Part shown: positions 10,784-18,965 of the stretch, piece by piece | Layout: every line of letters starts with the position of its first letter | How positions within the stretch are numbered: position 1 is the first letter of the stretch | Origin: a virus | Taxonomy: Duplodnaviria; Heunggongvirae; Uroviricota; Caudoviricetes | Strand: one strand, 5' to 3' | Virus record (IMG/VR): IMGVR_UViG_2671180360_000015 | Location: 1 to 20,054 of that record | DNA: 20,054 nt | Made by a program: the position numbers and the translations under genes | The notes under the pieces: model-generated | What the model was told of the DNA's origin: nothing | Seen by the model: the letters and a program-made list of their open reading frames with translations, nothing else | The model's database searches: none

Positions 10784-10925
10784 ACAACCCGCCATCACGC
10801 CCTCACACGCTCACCACCGCACAAAACAGCCCGCAGACACACCAACGCCCCGGCTAACAATCTAAACGCCATCACGACGCGCTCAGACGCTGAAAAAATA
10901 AAATCAGCACCACCGCCAGCGCGCA

Positions 10926-10944
10926 GTGCTTTCCCCGCCTCGCC
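10926..10944. other. cos: cos site: 19-nt cohesive-end sequence of P2 (window minus strand reads GGCGAGGCGGGGAAAGCAC)
   Basis: Exact reverse complement of the recalled P2 19-nt cohesive end; about 190 bp to the left (10757..10944) also matches the recalled P2 left-end sequence; position between Q and the old/tin-equivalent locus. Confidence 0.8.
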
Positions 10945-11104
10945 CGCCCGCTTCATGGGGCGGTTTTAATGCAGTTGCATTACCATACAGAAGTACTGCC
11001 ACGTCTGACAATTCATAGCTAGAATGTATAGCATATGTTGCATGCAAAATAATGCATATAAAGAATGCTTTTCACTCAATACTTCATCATACGATTTTGT
11101 TGGC

Positions 11105-11887
11105 TCATTTTAGAAGCCCTATTATAGCTGCAATCATACTTCCTACGCCGCCGACTGCTGCGAAAAAAGTAGCCCAAAACATTTTCTTCTGAGTACTCAA
11201 ATTCTCTCTGTACCGCACCTCATCTTTATTGAATGTAGATATTGTGTTCAGTGCCTTTCCTGTTGGCCTAAATCCACTACTTGTTTCAACAAGATCTCCA
11301 TTCTGAACAAGAGAATTCAGGCATAAACGAAGCTCTTTACGCATCCTGTTTTTATCGTCATGGTATACCCATAAACTACCAGCGACTTCGGTCATTATTG
11401 AAAACTCACTAAACACAGTTTGAGCATCCCATTCACGATACATTCTTATAATCGTTGAGAGAACAAACATCACATCAGTTATTTCTTTTTTTTGCTGTCG
11501 ATAAATATATTTTTCACGACTAAACTTTATATTTTCATAATTAGACTTTACTCTAAAGAACAACTCCCTTAAAAATGTTAAATCATTTAAAGAGTTAAAT
11601 CGCAACTCATGCGCACGGTAGTAGTAAACACCAAAAAAAGAATCAGGCGTAACCTCAGAAATATCCAAGCATGAACTTATATGAAATCTACGCTCCTCAT
11701 CATCCCATTTAAAAGCCTTTATCTTCCCATCAACCAAACAGTCAAAGAGGTATTCTGTATCATTTTTATCTTTAATATATACAGAGTACATATCATACTT
11801 AATCGCGTTTTCATATAACAAACTAATACGGCCATCATCTGGCGTTCTTTTCTTATCAAACTTCTTAAGTTGGTTTATAATTTTCAT
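11105..11887 (-). CDS. Hypothetical protein, 260 aa, soluble N-terminal domain with a single C-terminal TM anchor; candidate defence effector
   Basis: Long ORF in AT-rich DNA; C-terminal hydrophobic segment MFWATFFAAVGGVGSMIAAIIGLLK; no recognisable motif; weak SD. Confidence 0.65.
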   Translation of the reverse strand: MKIINQLKKFDKKRTPDDGRISLLYENAIKYDMYSVYIKDKNDTEYLFDCLVDGKIKAFKWDDEERRFHISSCLDISEVTPDSFFGVYYYRAHELRFNSLNDLTFLRELFFRVKSNYENIKFSREKYIYRQQKKEITDVMFVLSTIIRMYREWDAQTVFSEFSIMTEVAGSLWVYHDDKNRMRKELRLCLNSLVQNGDLVETSSGFRPTGKALNTISTFNKDEVRYRENLSTQKKMFWATFFAAVGGVGSMIAAIIGLLK

Positions 11888-11945
11888 AACATTCTCGCAG
11901 TGCTAATCTCATACGCAACAAATCTCGGTTCTGCCGCTCTAATAG

Positions 11946-11988
11946 TCAAAAAATGCCGACACCCAATTAAATATTCAGCGTCGGCATT
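11946..11988 (-). terminator. Terminator-like hairpin between the two cassette genes
   Basis: On the minus strand AATGCCGAC / GTCGGCATT 9-bp stem with 19-nt loop followed by a T-run, 9 nt after the upstream gene stop; loop is long for a canonical terminator. Confidence 0.35.
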
Positions 11989-11996
11989 GTAAGATA

Positions 11997-12770
11997 TCAA
12001 TTATCTATGATTGATATCACCTTACCAGTTTTTATATCAACACGCGCAGCAATCGTCTGTTTCACCACTCCGCCATAAGCATTAGTTCCGCGAAACGTGG
12101 TTTTCACAATGGCATGCGGGTCTTTATTCAAAACCAGATGATATACCGTTGATACATGTTTATAAGATGAATCATCGTTCATATTATCTTTAATTAGTTT
12201 TTCCAATGGACGATAAGAACCATCCCAACCACTAAAATTACTCTGAAATGTATCAAGATTGATTTTATTGTTTAGTGAATTCGGGTCATTTTCATAATCA
12301 TTAAAGCACCACCCAAGAACATCACCGAGTTTCAACTCATCATCTTTGGTAAATGTATATTCACTCATGCAGGCATAAAACGCATCTGACGCGGTGGCTG
12401 GAACTTCCTTAAAATCAATGTAACTATTCACAATATCGTGTCGTGTTTTCTTTGACTCGTTCCGATATTCCTTGAGTGTTTTTTCACCATATTCGAATGT
12501 TTTTTGGACTTTATGTTCTGCAACGGTTGATGTTTCAGTTTTATCAACTGGCTGGCTTTTTTCTGTTGGATAGAGTATTGAACCAATTATGCTCAATACA
12601 AAACCTCCTCCGAGATAAACCGCACTTGCACGTTTGCGGTTTGGCATTCGCACCAGTGATGGCTTGATTAACCCGATGAAGAAAGCAACGAAAAAAGCGA
12701 GTGATAGAAAAGCGATTATAGTATCCATAGCTATCCTTTTTGCATCATCCACATAAAAAATCGACCTCAT
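11997..12770 (-). CDS. Hypothetical membrane protein, 257 aa (243 aa from the start at 12728); two N-terminal TM helices and a ~180-aa C-terminal domain predicted to be periplasmic
   Basis: AT-rich ORF; TM1 TIIAFLSLAFFVAFFIGLI, basic loop RMPNRKRAS, TM2 AVYLGGGFVLSIIGSILY; the ATG at 12728 has the better SD (AAAGGAtagctATG). Confidence 0.65.
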   Translation of the reverse strand: MRSIFYVDDAKRIAMDTIIAFLSLAFFVAFFIGLIKPSLVRMPNRKRASAVYLGGGFVLSIIGSILYPTEKSQPVDKTETSTVAEHKVQKTFEYGEKTLKEYRNESKKTRHDIVNSYIDFKEVPATASDAFYACMSEYTFTKDDELKLGDVLGWCFNDYENDPNSLNNKINLDTFQSNFSGWDGSYRPLEKLIKDNMNDDSSYKHVSTVYHLVLNKDPHAIVKTTFRGTNAYGGVVKQTIAARVDIKTGKVISIIDN

Positions 12771-13157
12771 GTTAGCAACAGGATGCTTACTTTTGAATAT
12801 TTGTAAGTTGTTAGCTCTCCAACCTAACTCCTTTCAACCGTCAAAAACCGGCACCAACGCAGTAAAAATATGTCTGTCAACTAACGCCTCGCTACGCTCG
12901 TTGTTCAACCCCGCCAGCCCTGAAAACAAGTTTCACGACTGGCGGCGTTCTCTATCGTCTTCGTGGTGGTGGCGCAACTCTGGACTGACCGATATAGTTA
13001 AGCCGCCCGTAATTATCCCGAACTATTTCGGCACACCCGACCAGCTCATCGGGCGTCAGATTTTCGTTGACCATAATCCGCTGTAAACGCTGAACAATAG
13101 CCATCAGCTTGATATTTTTAGTTTTATGGTGCGGTATCTCGCCTGGTATTCTGTGCA

Positions 13158-13613
13158 TTATCCAAGCCACCCGTTTTGCTTTGCACGCTCCACCTGTTCA
13201 TCTGAATAGTTCCATATCCCATCCGCAGCAACCACTGCCCCGCCAGACAGCCCCGTCTCTGGTTCATACATAACAGCAAGGCCGAGCTGATGCATAATTT
13301 CATGATTAATTCTGAATACCAGACCACGTTCACTAAGTTCTTTCCAGTTCACAATCTTATATGCGCCCGTATTAAGCAGCTCAATACTTAGCAAGACATA
13401 ATCTTCCAGCCAGTCTGACAGGTCAGTAACATCTGTTATCCGGGCTTCAACCTTTCGCCCCGTAAACACACCCTGCACCCATTCATGCAAAATCAACGTG
13501 TCCCCGCGCTCATAATTACGGTCATTTTTCCGAAACTCTGCGCGTTTTTTTCCTTCCAGTACAAGGTCGAAATATTTTGCGTGCAGCTTTACCTCGTGAA
13601 TTTTTGCCATCAT
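13158..13613 (-). CDS. ASCH-like / DUF3850-type protein with C-terminal extension (151 aa)
   Basis: MAKIHEVKLHAKYFDLVLEGKKRAEFRKNDRNYERGDTLILHEW resembles the DUF3850/ASCH signature; start ATG overlaps the gpA stop (ATGA); occupies the P2 orf91 position. Confidence 0.7.
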   Translation of the reverse strand: MMAKIHEVKLHAKYFDLVLEGKKRAEFRKNDRNYERGDTLILHEWVQGVFTGRKVEARITDVTDLSDWLEDYVLLSIELLNTGAYKIVNWKELSERGLVFRINHEIMHQLGLAVMYEPETGLSGGAVVAADGIWNYSDEQVERAKQNGWLG

Positions 13614-15937
13614 GTCCACTCCATTACTGTTGAGAATCCCGGCCACTCATCAGCGACCGGATACGTGAATTTTTTCCCGTCATAATTTACGGTCGCGCCA
13701 CGCACCAGCGCCTCAAGCTCCCATCGTTGCGGCCTGATACCGTTCTGAGCGAGGTCAACGCGGATACGGGTAATTTGCAATCGTTCTGACCGGGTCAGTC
13801 TGGCCGATGGCGCTATTTCATGCGGTTTTAACGGGTTTCCGTTTCTTTGCTGACGGTTTGGTCTTCTCAGACCGTGTTTTAATGCGCTTCTGAGCGCCCT
13901 CACGACCTCCGGGTCATTCCATTCGATAACACCGTCATCAACCAGATTAAGCACTGCTGCGGCGTGCTCAGAAGGTGTGGGAGCCGGTAACGAAGCATCA
14001 CCACCGGTGAGCTTTCCACAGTTATTGACAGGACTCCGAGGCGCGGCGATGCCGCTTTTTAAAGTCAAAGGCTCAACGACCGGAACTTTCGGAACAATGC
14101 GCCAGTCCGTCGTTCTGGTGATATGAATATGACGCGCGCCGAGATGCGGCGCGTAAATGCCGACCACTCTCTCGACTTCTTCCTCGTACTCGTTAACGTC
14201 ATCCGACGGGCTACGGGCGACCCTGACAGTCTGACAATCGCGCGGGACATTTGCCCCACCCTGCGCGCTGATATACAACGCAAAATCACCACTGTCTGCG
14301 GCGGCGCGTGCAGCCTCGACGCGCTCGTCAAACTCATCAGCAATGCTGACGCCGCGCGGCAATTTGCGTAGTTCACGGTAAGCCCCCATTGTCGGCAGGC
14401 CAACCGTTTTAAATTGCGGGATGCGCCACGTTGACGCCCATGCGGTAACAGCCGCTGCAGTGTCTTTCAGCGGCCTGCCGGTGTCGTTATCGAGCTGACC
14501 ATCCAGTGCATAGCCGTCGATGTTTTTTGAAATGTATTTCGCGATATATCCCGCAGCACCGCCCCGGTTAAGGTGTTTTGCCTGAAAACGGTTTCGCGCG
14601 GCTCCTCTTTCGTCGCCATCCTCTTTGAGCGCATAGCGACGCATGATTTCGATAATCTGGTTACGCTGGCGTGAATTACAAAAAAGCATCATATGCCAGT
14701 GCGGCGTTCCGTCGTGGTGTGGCTCGACGACACGCAAACCGTAGACCTGTAAATCATTATCCTTGAATGCCGTGCGCATCAGGCTCCAGATACGGCAGAG
14801 ATAACGCTGCGCATCCTTTGGATTAAATGCCTCATCGTTCCAGCCGTGATTAAGCTGCACGGTTTTACTTTCGCCTTTTCCTACCTGACGTGTCGGGTGA
14901 TACTTTGACGGCGCGGTCAGCGTGATAAACATCCCCACATCACCCTCTGCAGCGGCGTAACGCTCAATACCGGCAATGGTGTTCATCAGCTCCATCCGGC
15001 GAATTTCAGGATTAGAAATACTGCCCATCACCTTACTGATAAGGTCGATGCGCTCGCCGGTTTCCCTGTTTTCAAGGTCACACGATTTAAGAAATTCCAG
15101 ATTTGCCTGGCGGCGCGCACGCACATCACGAATGGCGTGTTTACTGGCATAAGGAGAACGGTCTTTATTGACCTCCCCGACAGCTATCAGTAACGCTTCA
15201 TGCCAGCGCATACGCTGGCCTTTAAGCTGACTAATCCACCACTCATCGTTAAACAGGCGGGCAATGGCAGAATATGCCTGCCTCGTGGTCATCTGTCCTT
15301 TACGGTATTTTTTCCAGTAGAGCGGGGAAATATTGAAAGCACGTGCAGCGCCAGCAACATGACCATACAGATGTGCCTGCGCCTCATCCGTAAACAGCGA
15401 TTCTTTTTCACCATGCGCATCAACCCATGCATCGCAGAGTTCCTCATACATCATGAAAAGCTGCGATGAGATACGGGCGGCAAACTTTTTCAGCTCCTTG
15501 TCATTCATTCCAGGCAGGCGCGCATAGTGGTCACGCTCTGCCAGAAACAGCAACGACGCGTCGGTGTTCATTTCATGGCGCTGATTCACGCGCTCAATGC
15601 GCGGCCATAAACGACGCTGAAAAGTGGATGTGAGGAAATAAAACCCGTGTACCGGACTTTTATTGCGCCGGATGTAGTCATAGCGTGAAGTAAACAGCGA
15701 GCGCAAAAAGTAAGGCAGGCGGTTAATCGTGGATAAAACACCTTGCACCTGACGCATCTCGTCACGTGTAAGGGGTCTTTCGCGCCCGACAGCCTCGCGT
15801 GGCGCGTTCCATGCATAAGCACCAGTAAACGCCTTACCGGTGCCTGCGGCAAATGCTGACGGAGGGACAAAACGCCCGGAGGCTTTAACGGCCATATGAG
15901 CCAAAAGCCTCAGAACAACGCTTGCTGAGTTGCTCAA
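13610..15937 (-). CDS. A: Replication initiation endonuclease gpA (rolling-circle initiator)
   Basis: HUH motif in EPHHDGTPHWHMMLF; start at MAVKASG (15895) would give 761 aa, the recalled P2 gpA length; longest ORF is 775 aa. Confidence 0.9.
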   Translation of the reverse strand: MSNSASVVLRLLAHMAVKASGRFVPPSAFAAGTGKAFTGAYAWNAPREAVGRERPLTRDEMRQVQGVLSTINRLPYFLRSLFTSRYDYIRRNKSPVHGFYFLTSTFQRRLWPRIERVNQRHEMNTDASLLFLAERDHYARLPGMNDKELKKFAARISSQLFMMYEELCDAWVDAHGEKESLFTDEAQAHLYGHVAGAARAFNISPLYWKKYRKGQMTTRQAYSAIARLFNDEWWISQLKGQRMRWHEALLIAVGEVNKDRSPYASKHAIRDVRARRQANLEFLKSCDLENRETGERIDLISKVMGSISNPEIRRMELMNTIAGIERYAAAEGDVGMFITLTAPSKYHPTRQVGKGESKTVQLNHGWNDEAFNPKDAQRYLCRIWSLMRTAFKDNDLQVYGLRVVEPHHDGTPHWHMMLFCNSRQRNQIIEIMRRYALKEDGDERGAARNRFQAKHLNRGGAAGYIAKYISKNIDGYALDGQLDNDTGRPLKDTAAAVTAWASTWRIPQFKTVGLPTMGAYRELRKLPRGVSIADEFDERVEAARAAADSGDFALYISAQGGANVPRDCQTVRVARSPSDDVNEYEEEVERVVGIYAPHLGARHIHITRTTDWRIVPKVPVVEPLTLKSGIAAPRSPVNNCGKLTGGDASLPAPTPSEHAAAVLNLVDDGVIEWNDPEVVRALRSALKHGLRRPNRQQRNGNPLKPHEIAPSARLTRSERLQITRIRVDLAQNGIRPQRWELEALVRGATVNYDGKKFTYPVADEWPGFSTVMEWT

Positions 15938-17044: not shown

Positions 17045-17545
17045 TTAATGCAGATATTGCTCTGGTTTTACCGACGTCAGAATTGTCGGTGCATATTCAA
17101 ACAGACTGAATAATTCACGTAATGCACGGAATAAAGCATCACGCCAGTAACATGACTCTTCATTAATTCGCCAGTATGGCTGGTTGAATTCTTTTTCAGT
17201 CAATCCGGCATGCATAAATAAAGTGCGACGCTGACTGACAGTTAAAAAACTAATATATGCATACTCACTTGCGCCAACCTGACGGCGTTTTGAGAATGCC
17301 CCACGCAATTCATCAATTGCACAAACCAGCCGTTCACGTTCGACGTCGTTCATTTCTTCAAAACGCATCGTTGCGTGACGCTGCTTTAACTGCGCATGAA
17401 AGCAAACCGTTAGCCGTTCGCGCTCCATCATCTGATTATAATAATCACATGTATCCTGCCAGCGAGGGACGGCAAGATGCTTGCCAATTATCCGGCGCAT
17501 AGCTGCTGGCTGTTTTTCAACGAGATTGAGCGTCATCACTGTCAT
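17045..17545 (-). CDS. B: Replication protein gpB
   Basis: 166 aa, matching recalled P2 gpB length; position upstream of A in early operon; ATGA overlap with upstream ORF. Confidence 0.75.
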   Translation of the reverse strand: MTVMTLNLVEKQPAAMRRIIGKHLAVPRWQDTCDYYNQMMERERLTVCFHAQLKQRHATMRFEEMNDVERERLVCAIDELRGAFSKRRQVGASEYAYISFLTVSQRRTLFMHAGLTEKEFNQPYWRINEESCYWRDALFRALRELFSLFEYAPTILTSVKPEQYLH

Positions 17546-17712
17546 TTCCAGACCCTCCGGCTTTTCAGAAAGGTCAGAGCCTTTTTTAACAGACTCTGTT
17601 TTTTGGTGCGGATAATGATTCCCTTGCGTCCCTTCCCGTGGGTGATGGTGAAGTCAATCGCCCTGGGGCTTTCGTTACGCAATAACTGAGCAATACAACG
17701 AGGTTCCTGCAT
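17542..17712 (-). CDS. Hypothetical small basic protein (56 aa)
   Basis: Start MQEPRC preceded by SD CAGGAGGAGTT; stop overlaps B start. Confidence 0.5.
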   Translation of the reverse strand: MQEPRCIAQLLRNESPRAIDFTITHGKGRKGIIIRTKKQSLLKKALTFLKSRRVWK

Positions 17713-17829
17713 AACTCCTCCTGAAACAGAGCCGGTTTTTAGCCATGTCCGGCGCATGGTCTTGTGGTACTATCCAATTGCTTTCACTCCAAATGTAAGC
17801 AAGTAGTTCGTAACACAAGGAATAACGAC

Positions 17830-18006
17830 ATGAATGATTTAGAAAAAACCAAGTTTCTTTTTGAGCAGACCTGTTCAGTCATCGGTGGAGCACTTACTGA
17901 ACAATCAAGAATGCCTCTCCCTGTAGAGGTACGCATCGAGCGGTTGTTTGATGCTGTTTACCCAGTTCTTGAACGAAAGCTCGAAGAAAAACTTGGGAAA
18001 AAATAA
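17830..18006 (+). CDS. Hypothetical small protein (58 aa) convergent to the early operon
   Basis: Start MNDLEKTKF preceded by AAGGAA; possible extended -10 (TGgTACTAT) at 17763..17771; fills a 294-nt stretch with no minus-strand ORF. Confidence 0.4.
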   Translation: MNDLEKTKFLFEQTCSVIGGALTEQSRMPLPVEVRIERLFDAVYPVLERKLEEKLGKK

Positions 18007-18195
18007 TTATTTCTCGTGCTGGTAAAGAAAATCTAAAATTCCCGCGATACAGCTAATTTCTCTGCCGGACAATTGCTTACCTAAACGTCCGGCTTCTTGT
18101 TTCAGAAAGTCACCAGCCCTCACCGACAAATCCAGCATTTCTTGTGGCGTTAATGCCTCGTTATCTGCTGCAATAACACTCTGTTGTTTTCCCAT
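18007..18195 (-). CDS. Hypothetical early protein (62 aa)
   Basis: Start MGKQQ preceded by strong SD AAGGAGGtaatt; immediately downstream of the Cox-like gene. Confidence 0.55.
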   Translation of the reverse strand: MGKQQSVIAADNEALTPQEMLDLSVRAGDFLKQEAGRLGKQLSGREISCIAGILDFLYQHEK

Positions 18196-18205
18196 AATTA
18201 CCTCC

Positions 18206-18562
18206 TTAGGCCGCGTGGCCATGTCTGGATTTGCTGTAACTTATGCGATTCTTCCAGTCATGCCATTCTGTCGGAGCTTCATCGACTAGTTGAGCTGCAT
18301 ATTTGTCCCACTCACGACGATTAATCCATAACTCAGCATGACCGCCCGGCTTTAACGGGTCTGTCATATAGAATGCTGGCAGCTTTCCAGCTCGTGCCAT
18401 TTCAGCCACCGCACGAGGAGTCTTACCGATGTAAAGAGCAAAACCCTCTTTCGACAGTAAATCTGACGGATCCGCAGCCAACTTAATGGAATCACGCTTG
18501 TTTTTTTTAAGAGCAGAAACTTCTTGTCTTTTCTCGTCACAAATTTCAGATCCGACATTCAT
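18206..18562 (-). CDS. cox: Cox-like excisionase / early regulator (118 aa)
   Basis: First gene of the leftward early operon, divergent from C; segment ALYIGKTPRAVAEMARAGKLPAFYMTDP resembles the recalled P2 Cox HTH region; SD GAGGA. Confidence 0.65.
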   Translation of the reverse strand: MNVGSEICDEKRQEVSALKKNKRDSIKLAADPSDLLSKEGFALYIGKTPRAVAEMARAGKLPAFYMTDPLKPGGHAELWINRREWDKYAAQLVDEAPTEWHDWKNRISYSKSRHGHAA

Positions 18563-18665
18563 TTTGCTATCCTCACATTGATGTCAGCGATCTAGAGCGA
18601 TTTAGAGTCGTTAGATGCTGATAAATCATATCAACTATGCAAAAGAATACGAGGTTAGAGAATTT
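18563..18665. promoter_or_regulatory. Immunity switch region (Pe/Pc and operators) between cox-like and C
   Basis: 103-bp region between divergent regulators; three tandem 10-bp imperfect direct repeats at 18586..18615. Confidence 0.55.
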
Positions 18666-18965
18666 ATGTCAACTGACACTAGCGAACGTTTGAAGCTTAT
18701 CCGTGAGTCTGAACGTCTGAAAATGAAGGAGGTAGCTGAACTAGCTGGCATCAACTACACCACATATGCAGGTTATGAATCAGGTAAGGCTATGATGTCC
18801 CTAGAAAATGCTAAGAAGTTTTTTAAAGTAGAAAGGTTCAGAAAATACCGTGACTGGTTCATGTTTGATGAAACTGATCCAGCAGCTGGACAAATAGCCC
18901 CGGCTCTCGCACACATTGGGCAAGACTCAACAATCTTGCACCACTCAGACCAAAAGACTGGCTGA
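18666..18965 (+). CDS. C: P2 C-type immunity repressor
   Basis: Start MSTDTSERLK gives 99 aa as in P2 C; C-terminus GQIAPALAHIGQ...QKTG matches recalled P2 C; HTH-like N-terminal region. Confidence 0.8.
   Translation: MSTDTSERLKLIRESERLKMKEVAELAGINYTTYAGYESGKAMMSLENAKKFFKVERFRKYRDWFMFDETDPAAGQIAPALAHIGQDSTILHHSDQKTG

Follow-up and report, generated by a model that had tools for sequence, protein, structure and literature searches.

The moron of Hendrix and Juhala is an extra gene that sits between backbone genes, carries its own promoter and terminator and is often expressed from the prophage. Two variable loci of P2-like phages, tin/old and Z/fun, are known, both with anti-phage genes and both rich sources of anti-phage systems. 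In lambda OOP and in convergent type I toxin-antitoxin systems, an early gene is overlapped at its 3' end by a short transcript that runs against it, while anti-CRISPR/aca loci place a conserved promoter with inverted repeats ahead of variable small genes in related phages. gpQ and gpA flank the tin/old anti-phage locus of P2-like phages, which adjoins cos (Rousset et al. 2022, PMC9122126). That paper makes no mention of cox, orf78 or the early operon, a 2026 preprint on P2/P4 hotspots makes none of cox, gpB or the early operon, and both the site and the gene described below go unmentioned in the P2 regulatory-region phylogeny, the HQ103/H-NS work and two P2 hotspot studies. The cassettes considered here are a previously undescribed, swappable, moron-like two-gene set at a variable site that had not been reported.

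The window (the whole stretch of DNA that was analysed, 20,054 nucleotides from IMG/VR record IMGVR_UViG_2671180360_000015) is a P2-like (Peduovirus) prophage. The features that frame the locus are these:

17542..17712, minus strand: orf78-like early gene (phrog_273), downstream of the cassette
17709..18192, unstranded: insertion of 483 bp holding A, B and the regulatory element, from pairwise alignment with NC_070906
17830..18006, plus strand: gene B (Y), encoding a 58-aa two-helix protein (PHROG, PGAP, dN/dS, AF2)
18007..18195, minus strand: gene A (X), the 62-aa early-operon partner (phrog_12968; PGAP CDS), convergent with B
18206..18562, minus strand: cox (Phage_Cox; Pfam PF10743, E 9e-29), the first early gene, upstream of the cassette

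The stretch 17713-18006 is the widest gap in the early operon, the remaining intergenic gaps being at most 63 nt. Because the orf78-like gene begins at 17712, with an AGGAGG Shine-Dalgarno (SD) sequence ahead of its start, and the stop of A lies at 18007, this 294-nt gap holds no credible early-strand gene. The earlier note had it free of any minus-strand ORF, but mechanical ones do occur there, one of 47 aa opening with TTG (17675-17818) and one of 50 aa opening with ATG (17784-17936); they are interrupted or startless in relatives and have no coding signature, and they were rejected as genes. No conserved early-strand terminator was found in the gap, and a weak minus-strand terminator match at 17929-17914 was discarded after alignment showed its inverted repeat to be absent from the DSM 103246 variant. 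On the plus strand, the 58-aa ORF described earlier is where it had been placed, and its AAGGAA SD is present: the frame runs from an ATG at 17830 to a TAA at 18004-18006, and the SD (17817-17822) is spaced 7 nt from the ATG. The TAA adjoins the TTA at 18007-18009 that is the stop of the minus-strand 62-aa gene A (18007-18195), and the previously claimed coincidence of the two gene ends is thus exact, with the stops abutting.

A 58-aa ORF could arise by chance in 294 nt, and B is taken as real because of its conservation. Relatives 35-87% identical to it occupy the same place across Enterobacterales, with position and signals kept in many genera. Every homologue, even at 35% identity, keeps the frame open, differences among them are enriched at third codon positions, and motifs at the N and C termini are invariant across the whole 35-87% range. 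Conservation and dN/dS in relatives, the check that the earlier note had called for, came out in favour of purifying selection on an open frame: dN/dS is 0.10-0.26 in the B frame and about 0.5-2 in most other frames, and the antisense -1 frame, though low as well (0.21-0.48), contains a stop in every homologue. B matches phrog_14615, a family of unknown function, over its full length (E 1e-37), PGAP annotates it as a CDS (WP_000998638.1), and AF2 models helices at 3-26 and 32-56 (pLDDT 83). A profile search gave 42 clusters, in which every named source belonged to Enterobacterales; 12 representatives were found among 1.84 billion proteins, and a word-indexed search found 7 clusters, indicating that B is rare in databases. 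This rarity, the shortness of the ORF and its lack of a known domain would fit a chance ORF within non-coding spacer that gene finders had over-called. We find that reading barely credible, since the frame-specific dN/dS, the two invariant motifs and a frame still open in homologues only 35% identical point to coding, and the retention of position and signals in many genera adds to conservation data that already contradict it. Judged from its homologues, B is a genuine protein-coding gene under purifying selection.

Gene A is likewise under purifying selection (dN/dS 0.24-0.35), and its AF2 model has a disordered N-terminus followed by helices at 17-41 and 44-61. The two genes co-occur: of the 20 B-family loci read, 16 have a gene of the A family convergent with B, and in these the two 3' ends range from a 4-nt gap to a 13-nt overlap. 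In two loci (L008 and L014) B lies beside unrelated partners, in which a hidden A-like domain was sought and not found; an obligate A-B complex is therefore unsupported. Neither A nor B had a match in Pfam, NCBIfam, PADLOC, or PDB sequences or folds, and neither had an HTH match.

In the alignment with NC_070906, a close P2-like relative, the insertion is missing and the flanks are collinear, as expected of a clean indel, of which B makes up one half and A the other. The same alignment indicates that the orf78 start codon and SD context were re-employed for A, and the SD of the orf78-like gene comes from the left end of the cassette. The insertion is polymorphic among relatives of the window. 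P2-like prophages occur in about one third of the complete E. coli genomes in the collection and the orf78-B backbone in 1,669, while the cassette was found in 47 of 5,426, so that about 97% of E. coli P2-like prophages are without it. A tblastn search of 50,697 phage records with the window B and two divergent B homologues returned two records, both Yersinia phages; A returned the same two, and neither B nor A was found in the model P2-like phage records of that set. The Yersinia phage vB_YpM_115/117, which is isolated and plaque-forming, is 99.9% identical across the cassette region.

The regulatory element upstream of B is made up of the following features:

17731..17753, plus strand: inverted repeat IR1, GCCGG (17731-17735) complementary to CCGGC (17749-17753), its 3' arm within the IR2 loop
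17743..17759, plus strand: IR2 hairpin CCATG-TCCGGCG-CATGG, over the -35 position and followed by a T-rich run, terminator-like
17763..17773, plus strand: extended -10-like motif TGTGgTACTAT (TG at 17765-17766, hexamer TACTAT at 17768-17773)
17761..17819, unstranded: long imperfect inverted repeat linking the TGTGG box with CACAAG beside the SD, with 26-nt arms that are 77% complementary
17778-17802, unstranded: inner stem TTGCTT/AAGCAA of the long repeat, at the predicted mRNA 5' end
17817..17822, plus strand: Shine-Dalgarno AAGGAA of B; every homologous locus has a purine-rich SD in the corresponding position

A possible extended -10, TGgTACTAT, had been noted before; the motif is present, but at 17765-17773 and not at 17763-17771 as first given. 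The form TGTGnTAnnnT was found in 12 of 13 diverse loci, with varying neighbouring bases, and the one exception (L028) reads TATGGTATTTA, in which the first G and the final T differ. The motif lies 65-79 nt from the ATG in 12 B-family loci and about 55 nt from it in loci with a short leader. The pattern that retrieved 80 IMG/VR stretches itself included TGTGRTA; an SD and an ORF lie downstream in all of the retrieved loci. A generic scan of the window for -35/-10 promoters and terminators called neither the -10 motif nor either terminator-like hairpin. By its form and conservation TGTGgTACTAT looks like an extended -10 sigma-70 promoter, predicted to be that of B, and an extended -10 suggests independence from an activator. 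Candidate LexA, CRP, sigma-54, IHF and Ogr/Delta (TGT-N12-ACA) sites, compared by eye with consensus sequences, were rejected as wrongly spaced or unconserved.

The IR2 stem pairs in 88.5% of cells, against 26-49% in slid controls, and 12 cells carry double changes, a number reached in none of 500 shuffles; the stem variants include CCATG/CATGG, CCACG/CGTGG and CCCTG/CAGGG. Its energy is -8.2 kcal/mol in the window and -10.2 in the common variant, its G.U pairs occur in the plus-strand sense only (two pairs, 15 cells), and it is followed in most variants by a U-run, which is poor in the window (TCTTGTGG). The sixth pair of IR1 covaries as well (GCCGGG/CCCGGC, GCCGGA/TCCGGC, CCGAT/ATCGG), and since the two repeats are interleaved, with 1 nt between CCGGC and CATGG, we judge on steric grounds that they are mutually exclusive. 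Elsewhere in the window CCATG-N7-CATGG has no exact copy and one match with a single mismatch, which is at chance level; an operator regulon built on IR2 was rejected, the window holding a single exact copy. A hairpin equivalent to the long repeat is found in every locus, with differing sequences (z -0.9 to -6.0), and its 3' arm reaches or covers the SD in several (e.g. L021, L027). The extended -10 box doubles as the 5' arm of this conserved hairpin. The inner 5' hairpin has z of -2 to -5 on the plus strand in distant loci and -0.7, not significant, in the window. These leader hairpins were judged by per-sequence folding with shuffles; MAFFT/RNAalifold of the full leader recovered IR2 only, because the variable hairpin does not align.

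With the -10 box inside a hairpin and the IR2 G.U pairs confined to the plus sense, transcription could begin further upstream, and the region could be an RNA leader rather than a promoter. It would then be a cis-regulatory leader or attenuator in which the transcript begins ahead of IR1 and takes in IR1, IR2 with its U-run and the long hairpin. The two short repeats would act as alternative antiterminator and terminator, the long hairpin would gate translation, and expression would depend on a signal instead of being constitutive. The mutually exclusive pairing, the compensatory changes in both repeats, the sense-specific G.U pairs, the U-run and the reach of the long hairpin to the SD are all features that such a leader would have. 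However, a conserved promoter is not visible upstream of IR1, where the start of the neighbouring early gene is only about 20-35 nt away and the gene itself varies by locus (orf78, cox or DUF4761); the near-invariant positions of the box are exactly those of a TG-n-TA-nnn-T promoter; overall, G.U pairs in the long hairpin favour neither strand; and a search of 17500-18700 against Rfam found nothing, either at gathering thresholds or at E<=1. On balance we consider the leader unlikely and retain the reading of the box as a predicted promoter of B.

The same element recurs elsewhere, about 21 specified bases of it retrieving about 80 phage contigs. The small ORFs that it precedes fall into at least 17 clusters, from 79 P2/186-like viral contigs, and it keeps an orientation that is conserved along with its signals: it is co-oriented with int in 59 of 59 loci, int lying 0.98-4.2 kb downstream, and is opposite to gpA in 49 of 49. 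The small ORF linked to it is usually convergent with a co-varying early-strand partner, unrelated ORFs being paired with unrelated early-strand genes, and cassettes are sometimes stacked, as in L018, where two lie in tandem. The cargo proteins span 27-198 aa, and their ORFs are hypervariable and under purifying selection. Pfam and NCBIfam gave nothing for the other cassette proteins and PHROGs gave families of unknown function only, and PADLOC-DB 2.0 had no matches for A, B, the protein pairs of L036 and L037 or the early-strand partner in L008.

Past the end of B a further hairpin was found:

18064..18102, plus strand: hairpin GCCGGAC-N16-GTCCGGC followed by TTCTTGTTT, predicted terminator of the B transcript within the A coding sequence

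This hairpin has an energy of -11.5 kcal/mol, and its U-run, which is weak in the window (TTCTTGTTT), begins 88 nt past the B stop. A hairpin with a U-run lies at +62 to +89 in 9 of the 11 loci with an A-family partner, a recurrence with a binomial P of about 1.5e-10 against background density, and the stems differ among loci (GGCCAG/CTGGCC, CCAGAGAG/CTCTCTGG). Protein constraint may explain part of the stem conservation, since the stem overlaps conserved A codons (AGR...SG). An overlap of about 95 nt, in which the B transcript would be antisense to the 3' end of A, is plausible from this arrangement.

The predicted terminator bears on two further readings. In one, the promoter is of the establishment type, an analogue of 186 pE or lambda pRE that fires soon after infection, reads back across the early genes into C and int and so aids the establishment of lysogeny, and the ORF is a passenger or helper. 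Its position past the first early gene or genes and its orientation toward cI-int, kept with int at all 59 loci, resemble those of 186 pE, whose -35 is likewise covered by an inverted repeat. However, there is no similarity to 186 pE, and TGTGnTAnnnT is not in that region of 186; a CII-like activator is not encoded, there being no CII homologue between cox and B. The predicted terminator lies 560 nt ahead of C and makes read-through into C unlikely, and its recurrence 62-89 nt past the ORF, the hypervariability and purifying selection of the cargo, which do not suit a passenger, and the lack of the cassette from most E. coli P2-like prophages all argue further against an establishment role, which we rate as very improbable.

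In the other, the main product is an antisense RNA, comparable to lambda OOP on cII, that would lower A and, by polarity, orf78 and the phage B and A genes by base pairing and cleavage with RNase III. The ORF would be secondary. The convergent genes with abutting or overlapping 3' ends and a terminator placed to give the antisense overlap with A are in keeping with this, and the entire B mRNA would be complementary to a spacer that is left untranslated in the early transcript. Strong purifying selection on the B protein, with its invariant terminal motifs, and an SD and start conserved everywhere are not what a mainly antisense RNA would need. An antisense role may coexist with coding, yet is not the whole story, and as the main function it appears improbable.

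We think it probable that B, a real gene, belongs to a mobile, moron-like cassette inserted in reverse between cox and orf78 as a self-contained unit, and that A and B form an antagonistic pair. The unit would consist, in order, of an insulator (hairpin and U-run), the extended -10 promoter, a structured leader, the SD and the ORF, and would close with a terminator some 90 nt beyond the stop codon, giving a predicted B mRNA of about 320 nt, of which the last 95 nt or so would be antisense to the 3' end of A. In a lysogen, the C repressor would silence Pe and host RNA polymerase would make B unopposed, whereas upon induction or infection strong transcription from Pe would run head-on through the B unit, and transcriptional interference together with sense-antisense pairing would lower B while A is made. 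Expression of B in the lysogen, and this timing, are predicted from the layout. A and B, both small two-helix proteins, would most probably be antagonists, an accessory of the prophage state and its lytic-phase counterpart. The earlier suggestion that the ORF is a moron fares well on anatomy, given the clean insertion, the conserved -10, SD and downstream hairpin of its own and the purifying selection, and taken as a whole is supported in part.

The other earlier suggestion, that transcription of the ORF modulates early read-through into the phage B and A genes, may hold as well, convergent transcription and the antisense overlap with A being plausible. The earlier note had overlooked that the ORF is half of a conserved convergent pair, that the element is common to unrelated reverse-strand genes, and that the unit has an apparent terminator of its own.

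With the cassette site the known variable loci of P2-like phages become three, and the DNA signature by which this one can be recognised makes it simple to gather dozens of uncharacterised pairs of small proteins from the region that controls lysis and lysogeny; the convergent layout of opposite phases suggests a built-in prophage/lytic switch. More tentatively, and less likely than not, the junction directly downstream of Pe/cox may be a third hypervariable site at which convergent X/Y cassettes can be stacked, X and Y being antagonists whose diversity reflects conflict. If so, one possibility is that Y is a prophage exclusion or defence factor and X a lytic neutraliser that protects the development of the phage itself; another is that an early effector is countered by the immunity of a resident prophage, resulting in kin-specific exclusion of related phages. 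The element would then be a new portable module for expression or regulation, possibly an RNA attenuator.

Several known systems were compared with the cassette. It was rejected as a known anti-phage defence system, having no PADLOC-DB 2.0 model match, and as a type II toxin-antitoxin system, since A and B are not a co-transcribed pair with known folds or domains. A type I system was rejected as well: on inspection no stretch of A or B is hydrophobic over the length needed to span a membrane, both are two-helix hairpins in their AF2 models, and the antisense transcript carries a conserved ORF. Like OOP and type I systems, the cassette has a predicted short convergent transcript overlapping the 3' end of A, but that transcript encodes a conserved soluble protein, and neither A nor B is a small hydrophobic toxin. 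As in anti-CRISPR/aca loci, an element with inverted repeats precedes highly variable small genes; unlike those loci, the cassettes have no HTH aca-like gene, are oriented against the early operon, and carry cargo with no link to anti-defence. The promoter motif resembles 186 pE in being reversed inside the early operon, pointing toward cI-int with an inverted repeat over the -35, and differs in lacking sequence similarity and a CII gene and in having an extended -10, an ORF of its own and a predicted terminator.

The tin/old and Z/fun loci belong to the same phage family and share with the cassette site a high turnover of unrelated cargo at a fixed position, oriented against the neighbouring backbone genes. 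The cassette site differs from them in lying between cox and orf78/B or directly past Pe, and its cargo is far smaller (27-198 aa) and without a PADLOC match; for its shared upstream element and convergent early-strand partner no counterpart has been described at tin/old or Z/fun. Like morons, the cassette is a clean presence/absence insertion between conserved backbone genes, with a predicted promoter and terminator of its own and an orientation that would permit expression while the operon is repressed. Unlike morons, it is a convergent pair with one half in the host operon, and cassettes can be stacked and have in common a conserved terminator-promoter-leader element that serves many unrelated cargo genes.

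The window is a prophage of the P2-like (Peduovirus) type, and the map around the gap in its early operon is as follows; other early genes continue leftward as far as gpA.

17045-17545, minus strand: replication gene B of the phage backbone (not the 58 amino acid gene B)
17542-17712, minus strand: orf78-like gene (phrog_273)
17830-18006, plus strand: gene B, 58 amino acids
18007-18195, minus strand: gene A, 62 amino acids
18206-18562, minus strand: cox (Pfam Phage_Cox, E value 9e-29)
18666-18965, plus strand: HTH C-type repressor
19059 to the window end, plus strand: int

The top sigma-70 match of the region (TTGACA-17-TATTCT, 10/12, minus strand, 18644-18672) points left and overlaps the annotated repressor start at 18666, consistent with the face-to-face Pe and Pc promoters of P2-type switches. 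Positions 17500-18650 share 99.9% identity with the Yersinia phages vB_YpM_115 and 117 (OR545056/OR545057), and the 501 nt of 17700-18200, with gene A, gene B and the element upstream of B (the cassette), are 100% identical to prophages of several E. coli chromosomes. The two Yersinia phages form plaques, have Yersinia pestis EV76 as isolation host and carry the cassette; they offer a ready experimental system. Far to the left (approximately 10800-13650), from the capsid/terminase-side genes to gpA, the window has ORFs of 260, 257, 105 and 162 amino acids on mixed strands, at the position where P2-like phages have their known tin/old-type defence hotspot.

The observation of the earlier note was confirmed. 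The early operon is tight apart from a 294 nt gap, its largest by far (other gaps are 63 nt or less), and sequence and translation place the 58 amino acid plus-strand ORF in it from the ATG at 17830 to the TAA at 18004-18006, with an SD (AAGGAA, 17817-17822) 7 nt ahead of the start and a stop immediately adjoining that of the convergent gene A (TTA, 18007-18009). The early gene that follows the gap starts at 17712 and is preceded by AGGAGG. The gap had been described as free of minus-strand ORFs; two mechanical ones of 47 and 50 amino acids do overlap it, but no credible minus-strand gene does, both being broken or start-less in relatives and having no coding signature. The proposed extended -10 motif is present, but at 17765-17773 rather than 17763-17771, and its fuller form TGTGgTACTAT occupies 17763-17773.

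On comparative sequence evidence, B is a real gene: the match to PHROG 14615 is full length (E value 1e-37), and RefSeq genomes carry B as a PGAP annotation. The earlier note had asked for conservation and dN/dS, and a six-frame comparison of four homologues (62-86% identity) indicated conservation at the protein level: the frame of B was the only one open in every sequence, its differences clustered at third codon positions and its dN/dS was 0.10-0.26. Most other frames gave values of approximately 0.5-2; the antisense -1 frame was also low (0.21-0.48), as its complementary third positions would lead one to expect, yet it has a stop in every sequence. The B family is small, with 12 representatives (E value <1e-3) among 1.84 billion proteins in a profile search and 42 clusters in a word-indexed profile search. 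All organism-named clusters are from Enterobacterales, the genera being Escherichia, Klebsiella, Citrobacter, Enterobacter, Salmonella, Serratia, Kosakonia, Trabulsiella, Pectobacterium, Dickeya, Providencia and Yersinia. Two nearly invariant motifs, N-terminal M-x-x-E-E-K-x-x-F-L-F-x-Q-T-C and C-terminal F-D-x-x-Y-x-x-L-E-x-K-L-x-E-K-L, are separated by a variable loop, and the AlphaFold2 model is a two-helix hairpin (pLDDT 83). No informative match to B was found in Pfam, NCBIfam, PADLOC, or PDB sequences or folds. Among 50,697 phage records, tblastn with the B of the window and two divergent homologues found the family in two only, both Yersinia phages, and a tblastn search with A hit the same pair.

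Computational evidence supports the arrival of B together with A as a cassette. NC_070906, which is P2-like and has the same cox type, lacks exactly 483 bp (approximately 17709-18192) comprising A, B and the 117 nt upstream of B; relative to it, A reuses the start context of the former orf78, while the new SD of orf78 is supplied by the left end of the cassette. The orf78-B backbone is present in 1,669 of 5,426 complete E. coli genomes and the cassette in 47. In all 20 B-family loci that we read, which are not all independent, B is located in a P2/186-like prophage, within its early region and convergent to the early strand, and in 16 its 3' end meets, with a spacing from a 4 nt gap to a 13 nt overlap, a gene of 57-82 amino acids that aligns with A. 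The A-type consensus is LTPxE...LA...F.K.KA.E.GK..SG.D...I..I..L; A is under purifying selection (dN/dS 0.24-0.35) and is modeled as a disordered N terminus followed by two helices. In two of the loci (L008 and L014) B is paired with an unrelated protein (132 and 103 amino acids, respectively), so the pairing, as sampled here, is common without being obligate. Placement with respect to cox also varies, two loci (L015 and L018) having the A-type gene first and cox after the cassette. The prophage of E. coli DSM 103246 (L003) has cox and C flanks of another immunity type and a mosaic breakpoint within gene B: it is identical to the window over 17593-17882, with three base differences before and two silent sites just after, and drops to approximately 75% from about 17908 across the remainder of B and all of A. 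Half-cassettes are evidently shuffled by recombination.

The 117 nt upstream of B are conserved above ORF B itself, and their architecture recurs even between unrelated flanks: GCCGG(G), a short T-rich stretch and a 5-8 bp hairpin, IR2 (17743-17759 in the window); then a T-run merging into TGTGnTAnnnT (the box) and a hairpin of locus-specific sequence; and finally an ACCACA-like box, the SD and the ATG. In 12 of 13 diverse loci, what is kept of the TGTGnTAnnnT box is the set of positions that defines an extended -10 (TG, n, TA, nnn, T); the box of locus L028 departs from it (TATGGTATTTA). Across 26 distinct sequences, 88.5% of IR2 cells were paired, versus 26-49% with a slid partner, with 12 double-change cells and none of 500 shuffles as high; stem variants are CCATG/CATGG, CCACG/CGTGG and CCCTG/CAGGG. 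A second inverted repeat, IR1, pairs the upstream GCCGG(G) with the IR2 loop and also has compensatory changes. We judge the two helices to be mutually exclusive because their 3' arms are linked by only 1 nt. IR2 has G.U pairs at two pairs, in the plus sense only, and in every locus a longer inverted repeat, with no strand bias, pairs the TGTGG box with bases adjoining the SD. These two features keep alive the reading of the conserved block as an RNA leader with alternative structures, as opposed to a promoter behind an insulating terminator. The leader hairpin on the plus strand is significant in distant loci (z scores of -2 to -5) but weak in the window (-0.7).

Downstream of B, a plus-strand hairpin (GCCGGAC-N16-GTCCGGC) followed by TTCTTGTTT lies at 18064-18102, inside A, the U-run of this predicted terminator beginning 88 nt past the B stop. 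A hairpin and U-run occur at +62 to +89 in nine of 11 loci with A-type partners, with stems that vary by locus; the binomial P of approximately 1.5e-10 against background density is a guide only, given the relatedness of the loci and the overlap of the stem with conserved A codons. The signal falls on K.KA.E.GK..SG, the best conserved motif of A, with a Lys/Glu-rich stretch of A complementary to the U-run, so this segment may be under two constraints, one from the A protein and one from a signal in the antisense RNA. Together, the promoter-like, leader and terminator-like signals predict a discrete B mRNA of approximately 320 nt, the last 95 nt or so antisense to the 3' end of A. A reverse promoter with a pE/pRE-like role would fit the position and orientation, but this reading is weakened by the predicted terminator after B, by the absence of a CII-type gene and by the dissimilarity from 186 pE. 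As the earlier note proposed, B transcription may modulate early read-through; the means could be interference, pairing of antisense RNA, or Rho-dependent polarity where the spacer is untranslated, but we found no specific support for this. No conserved early-strand terminator was found in the gap; the only hit, a weak early-strand one (17929-17914), is not an inverted repeat in the aligned DSM 103246 variant. The phage 186 record (L124) annotates tR1 (2885-2913) among several early-region terminators, which are anti-terminated in lytic growth. If phages of the window type behave like 186, early transcription could ignore the cassette hairpins, which bears on the read-through idea.

Some E. 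coli prophages share only the upstream element, with other cargo at the same cox/orf78 site: reverse ORFs of 64 and 68 amino acids, unrelated to B, convergent with early-strand genes of 154 and 198 amino acids, unrelated to A. The element also exists in 186-like prophages. A degenerate 21 nt motif spanning IR2 and the box retrieved 83 IMG/VR stretches, and the same downstream layout was present in 79 of the 80 read. Deduplicated and pooled with the window and seven earlier loci, these gave 66 distinct cargo/partner combinations, with reverse-strand ORFs of 20-158 amino acids in 17 clusters and convergent partners in 15. Most reverse-ORF clusters were linked to a single partner cluster; the large one containing B was linked to several and may be over-merged, since clustering was loose and single-linkage. 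The element was oriented with int in 59/59 loci (int 0.98-4.2 kb downstream) and against gpA in 49/49, and the computational evidence supports a layout that recurs with many cargoes, always away from the replication genes and toward the lysogeny operon. A Pectobacterium versatile prophage (L018, 3040-4440) has two full tandem cassettes between cox and the repressor gene, one element copy each, in the order cox(-), element, 61 amino acid ORF(+), 153 amino acid ORF(-), element, 70 amino acid B homologue(+), 75 amino acid A homologue(-).

None of seven proteins from four cassettes (the window and loci L036, L037 and L008) matched PADLOC defence models, and those scanned against Pfam had no significant match. 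One unannotated class of cargo behind the element consists of very short acidic peptides that carry (D)FHV(P/L)(R/H)KPAP and then an Asp/Glu tail, e.g. MSDTDKFHVPRKPAPSPEKGKGGEEDED, of 27-29 (L044, L082, L086, L101, L109), 37-39 (L056, L090, L092, L097) or 46 (L116) amino acids; to our knowledge they resemble nothing recognised. Two E. coli 186-like prophages (L038, 2608-3075; L039, 2884-3339) have cargo ORFs of 151-155 amino acids that by eye look like YegP/DUF1508-type repeats. That of L038 is directly 3' of the element, while the element of L039 has behind it only a 13-codon ORF (likewise in L093), apparently a decayed cargo gene, with the 151 amino acid ORF starting approximately 350 nt further on.

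The earlier idea of a lysogeny-expressed moron, extended here to a convergent pair, is partly supported: the sequence anatomy agrees in part, with an insertion and, on computational evidence, conserved promoter-like, SD and terminator-like signals for B. We infer that B would be made from the prophage while Pe, the early lytic promoter, is repressed, and that activation of Pe would shift the balance from B to A through head-on transcription and sense-antisense pairing. A and B, and such early-strand/reverse-strand pairs generally, would then be linked in function and would probably antagonise each other. Of more interest than the original observation is the wider pattern of a portable element for reverse-strand expression, with diverse small genes, in the lysis-lysogeny control region of P2/186-like phages.

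Besides tin/old, P2-like phages have a second known variable locus, Z/fun, which is also an anti-phage reservoir. The tin/old locus is a known variable locus and reservoir of anti-phage systems (PMC9122126). That paper contains none of the terms cox, orf78 or early operon, and a 2026 preprint that surveys P2/P4 hotspots has none of cox, gpB or early operon; the cassette site is unmentioned in the literature searched, a limited library and hence no proof of novelty. The closest concepts are morons, the tin/old and Z/fun loci, 186 pE, lambda OOP and anti-CRISPR/aca loci, and from each of these the cassette differs by its site, its small cargo, its convergent early-strand partner and its common upstream element.
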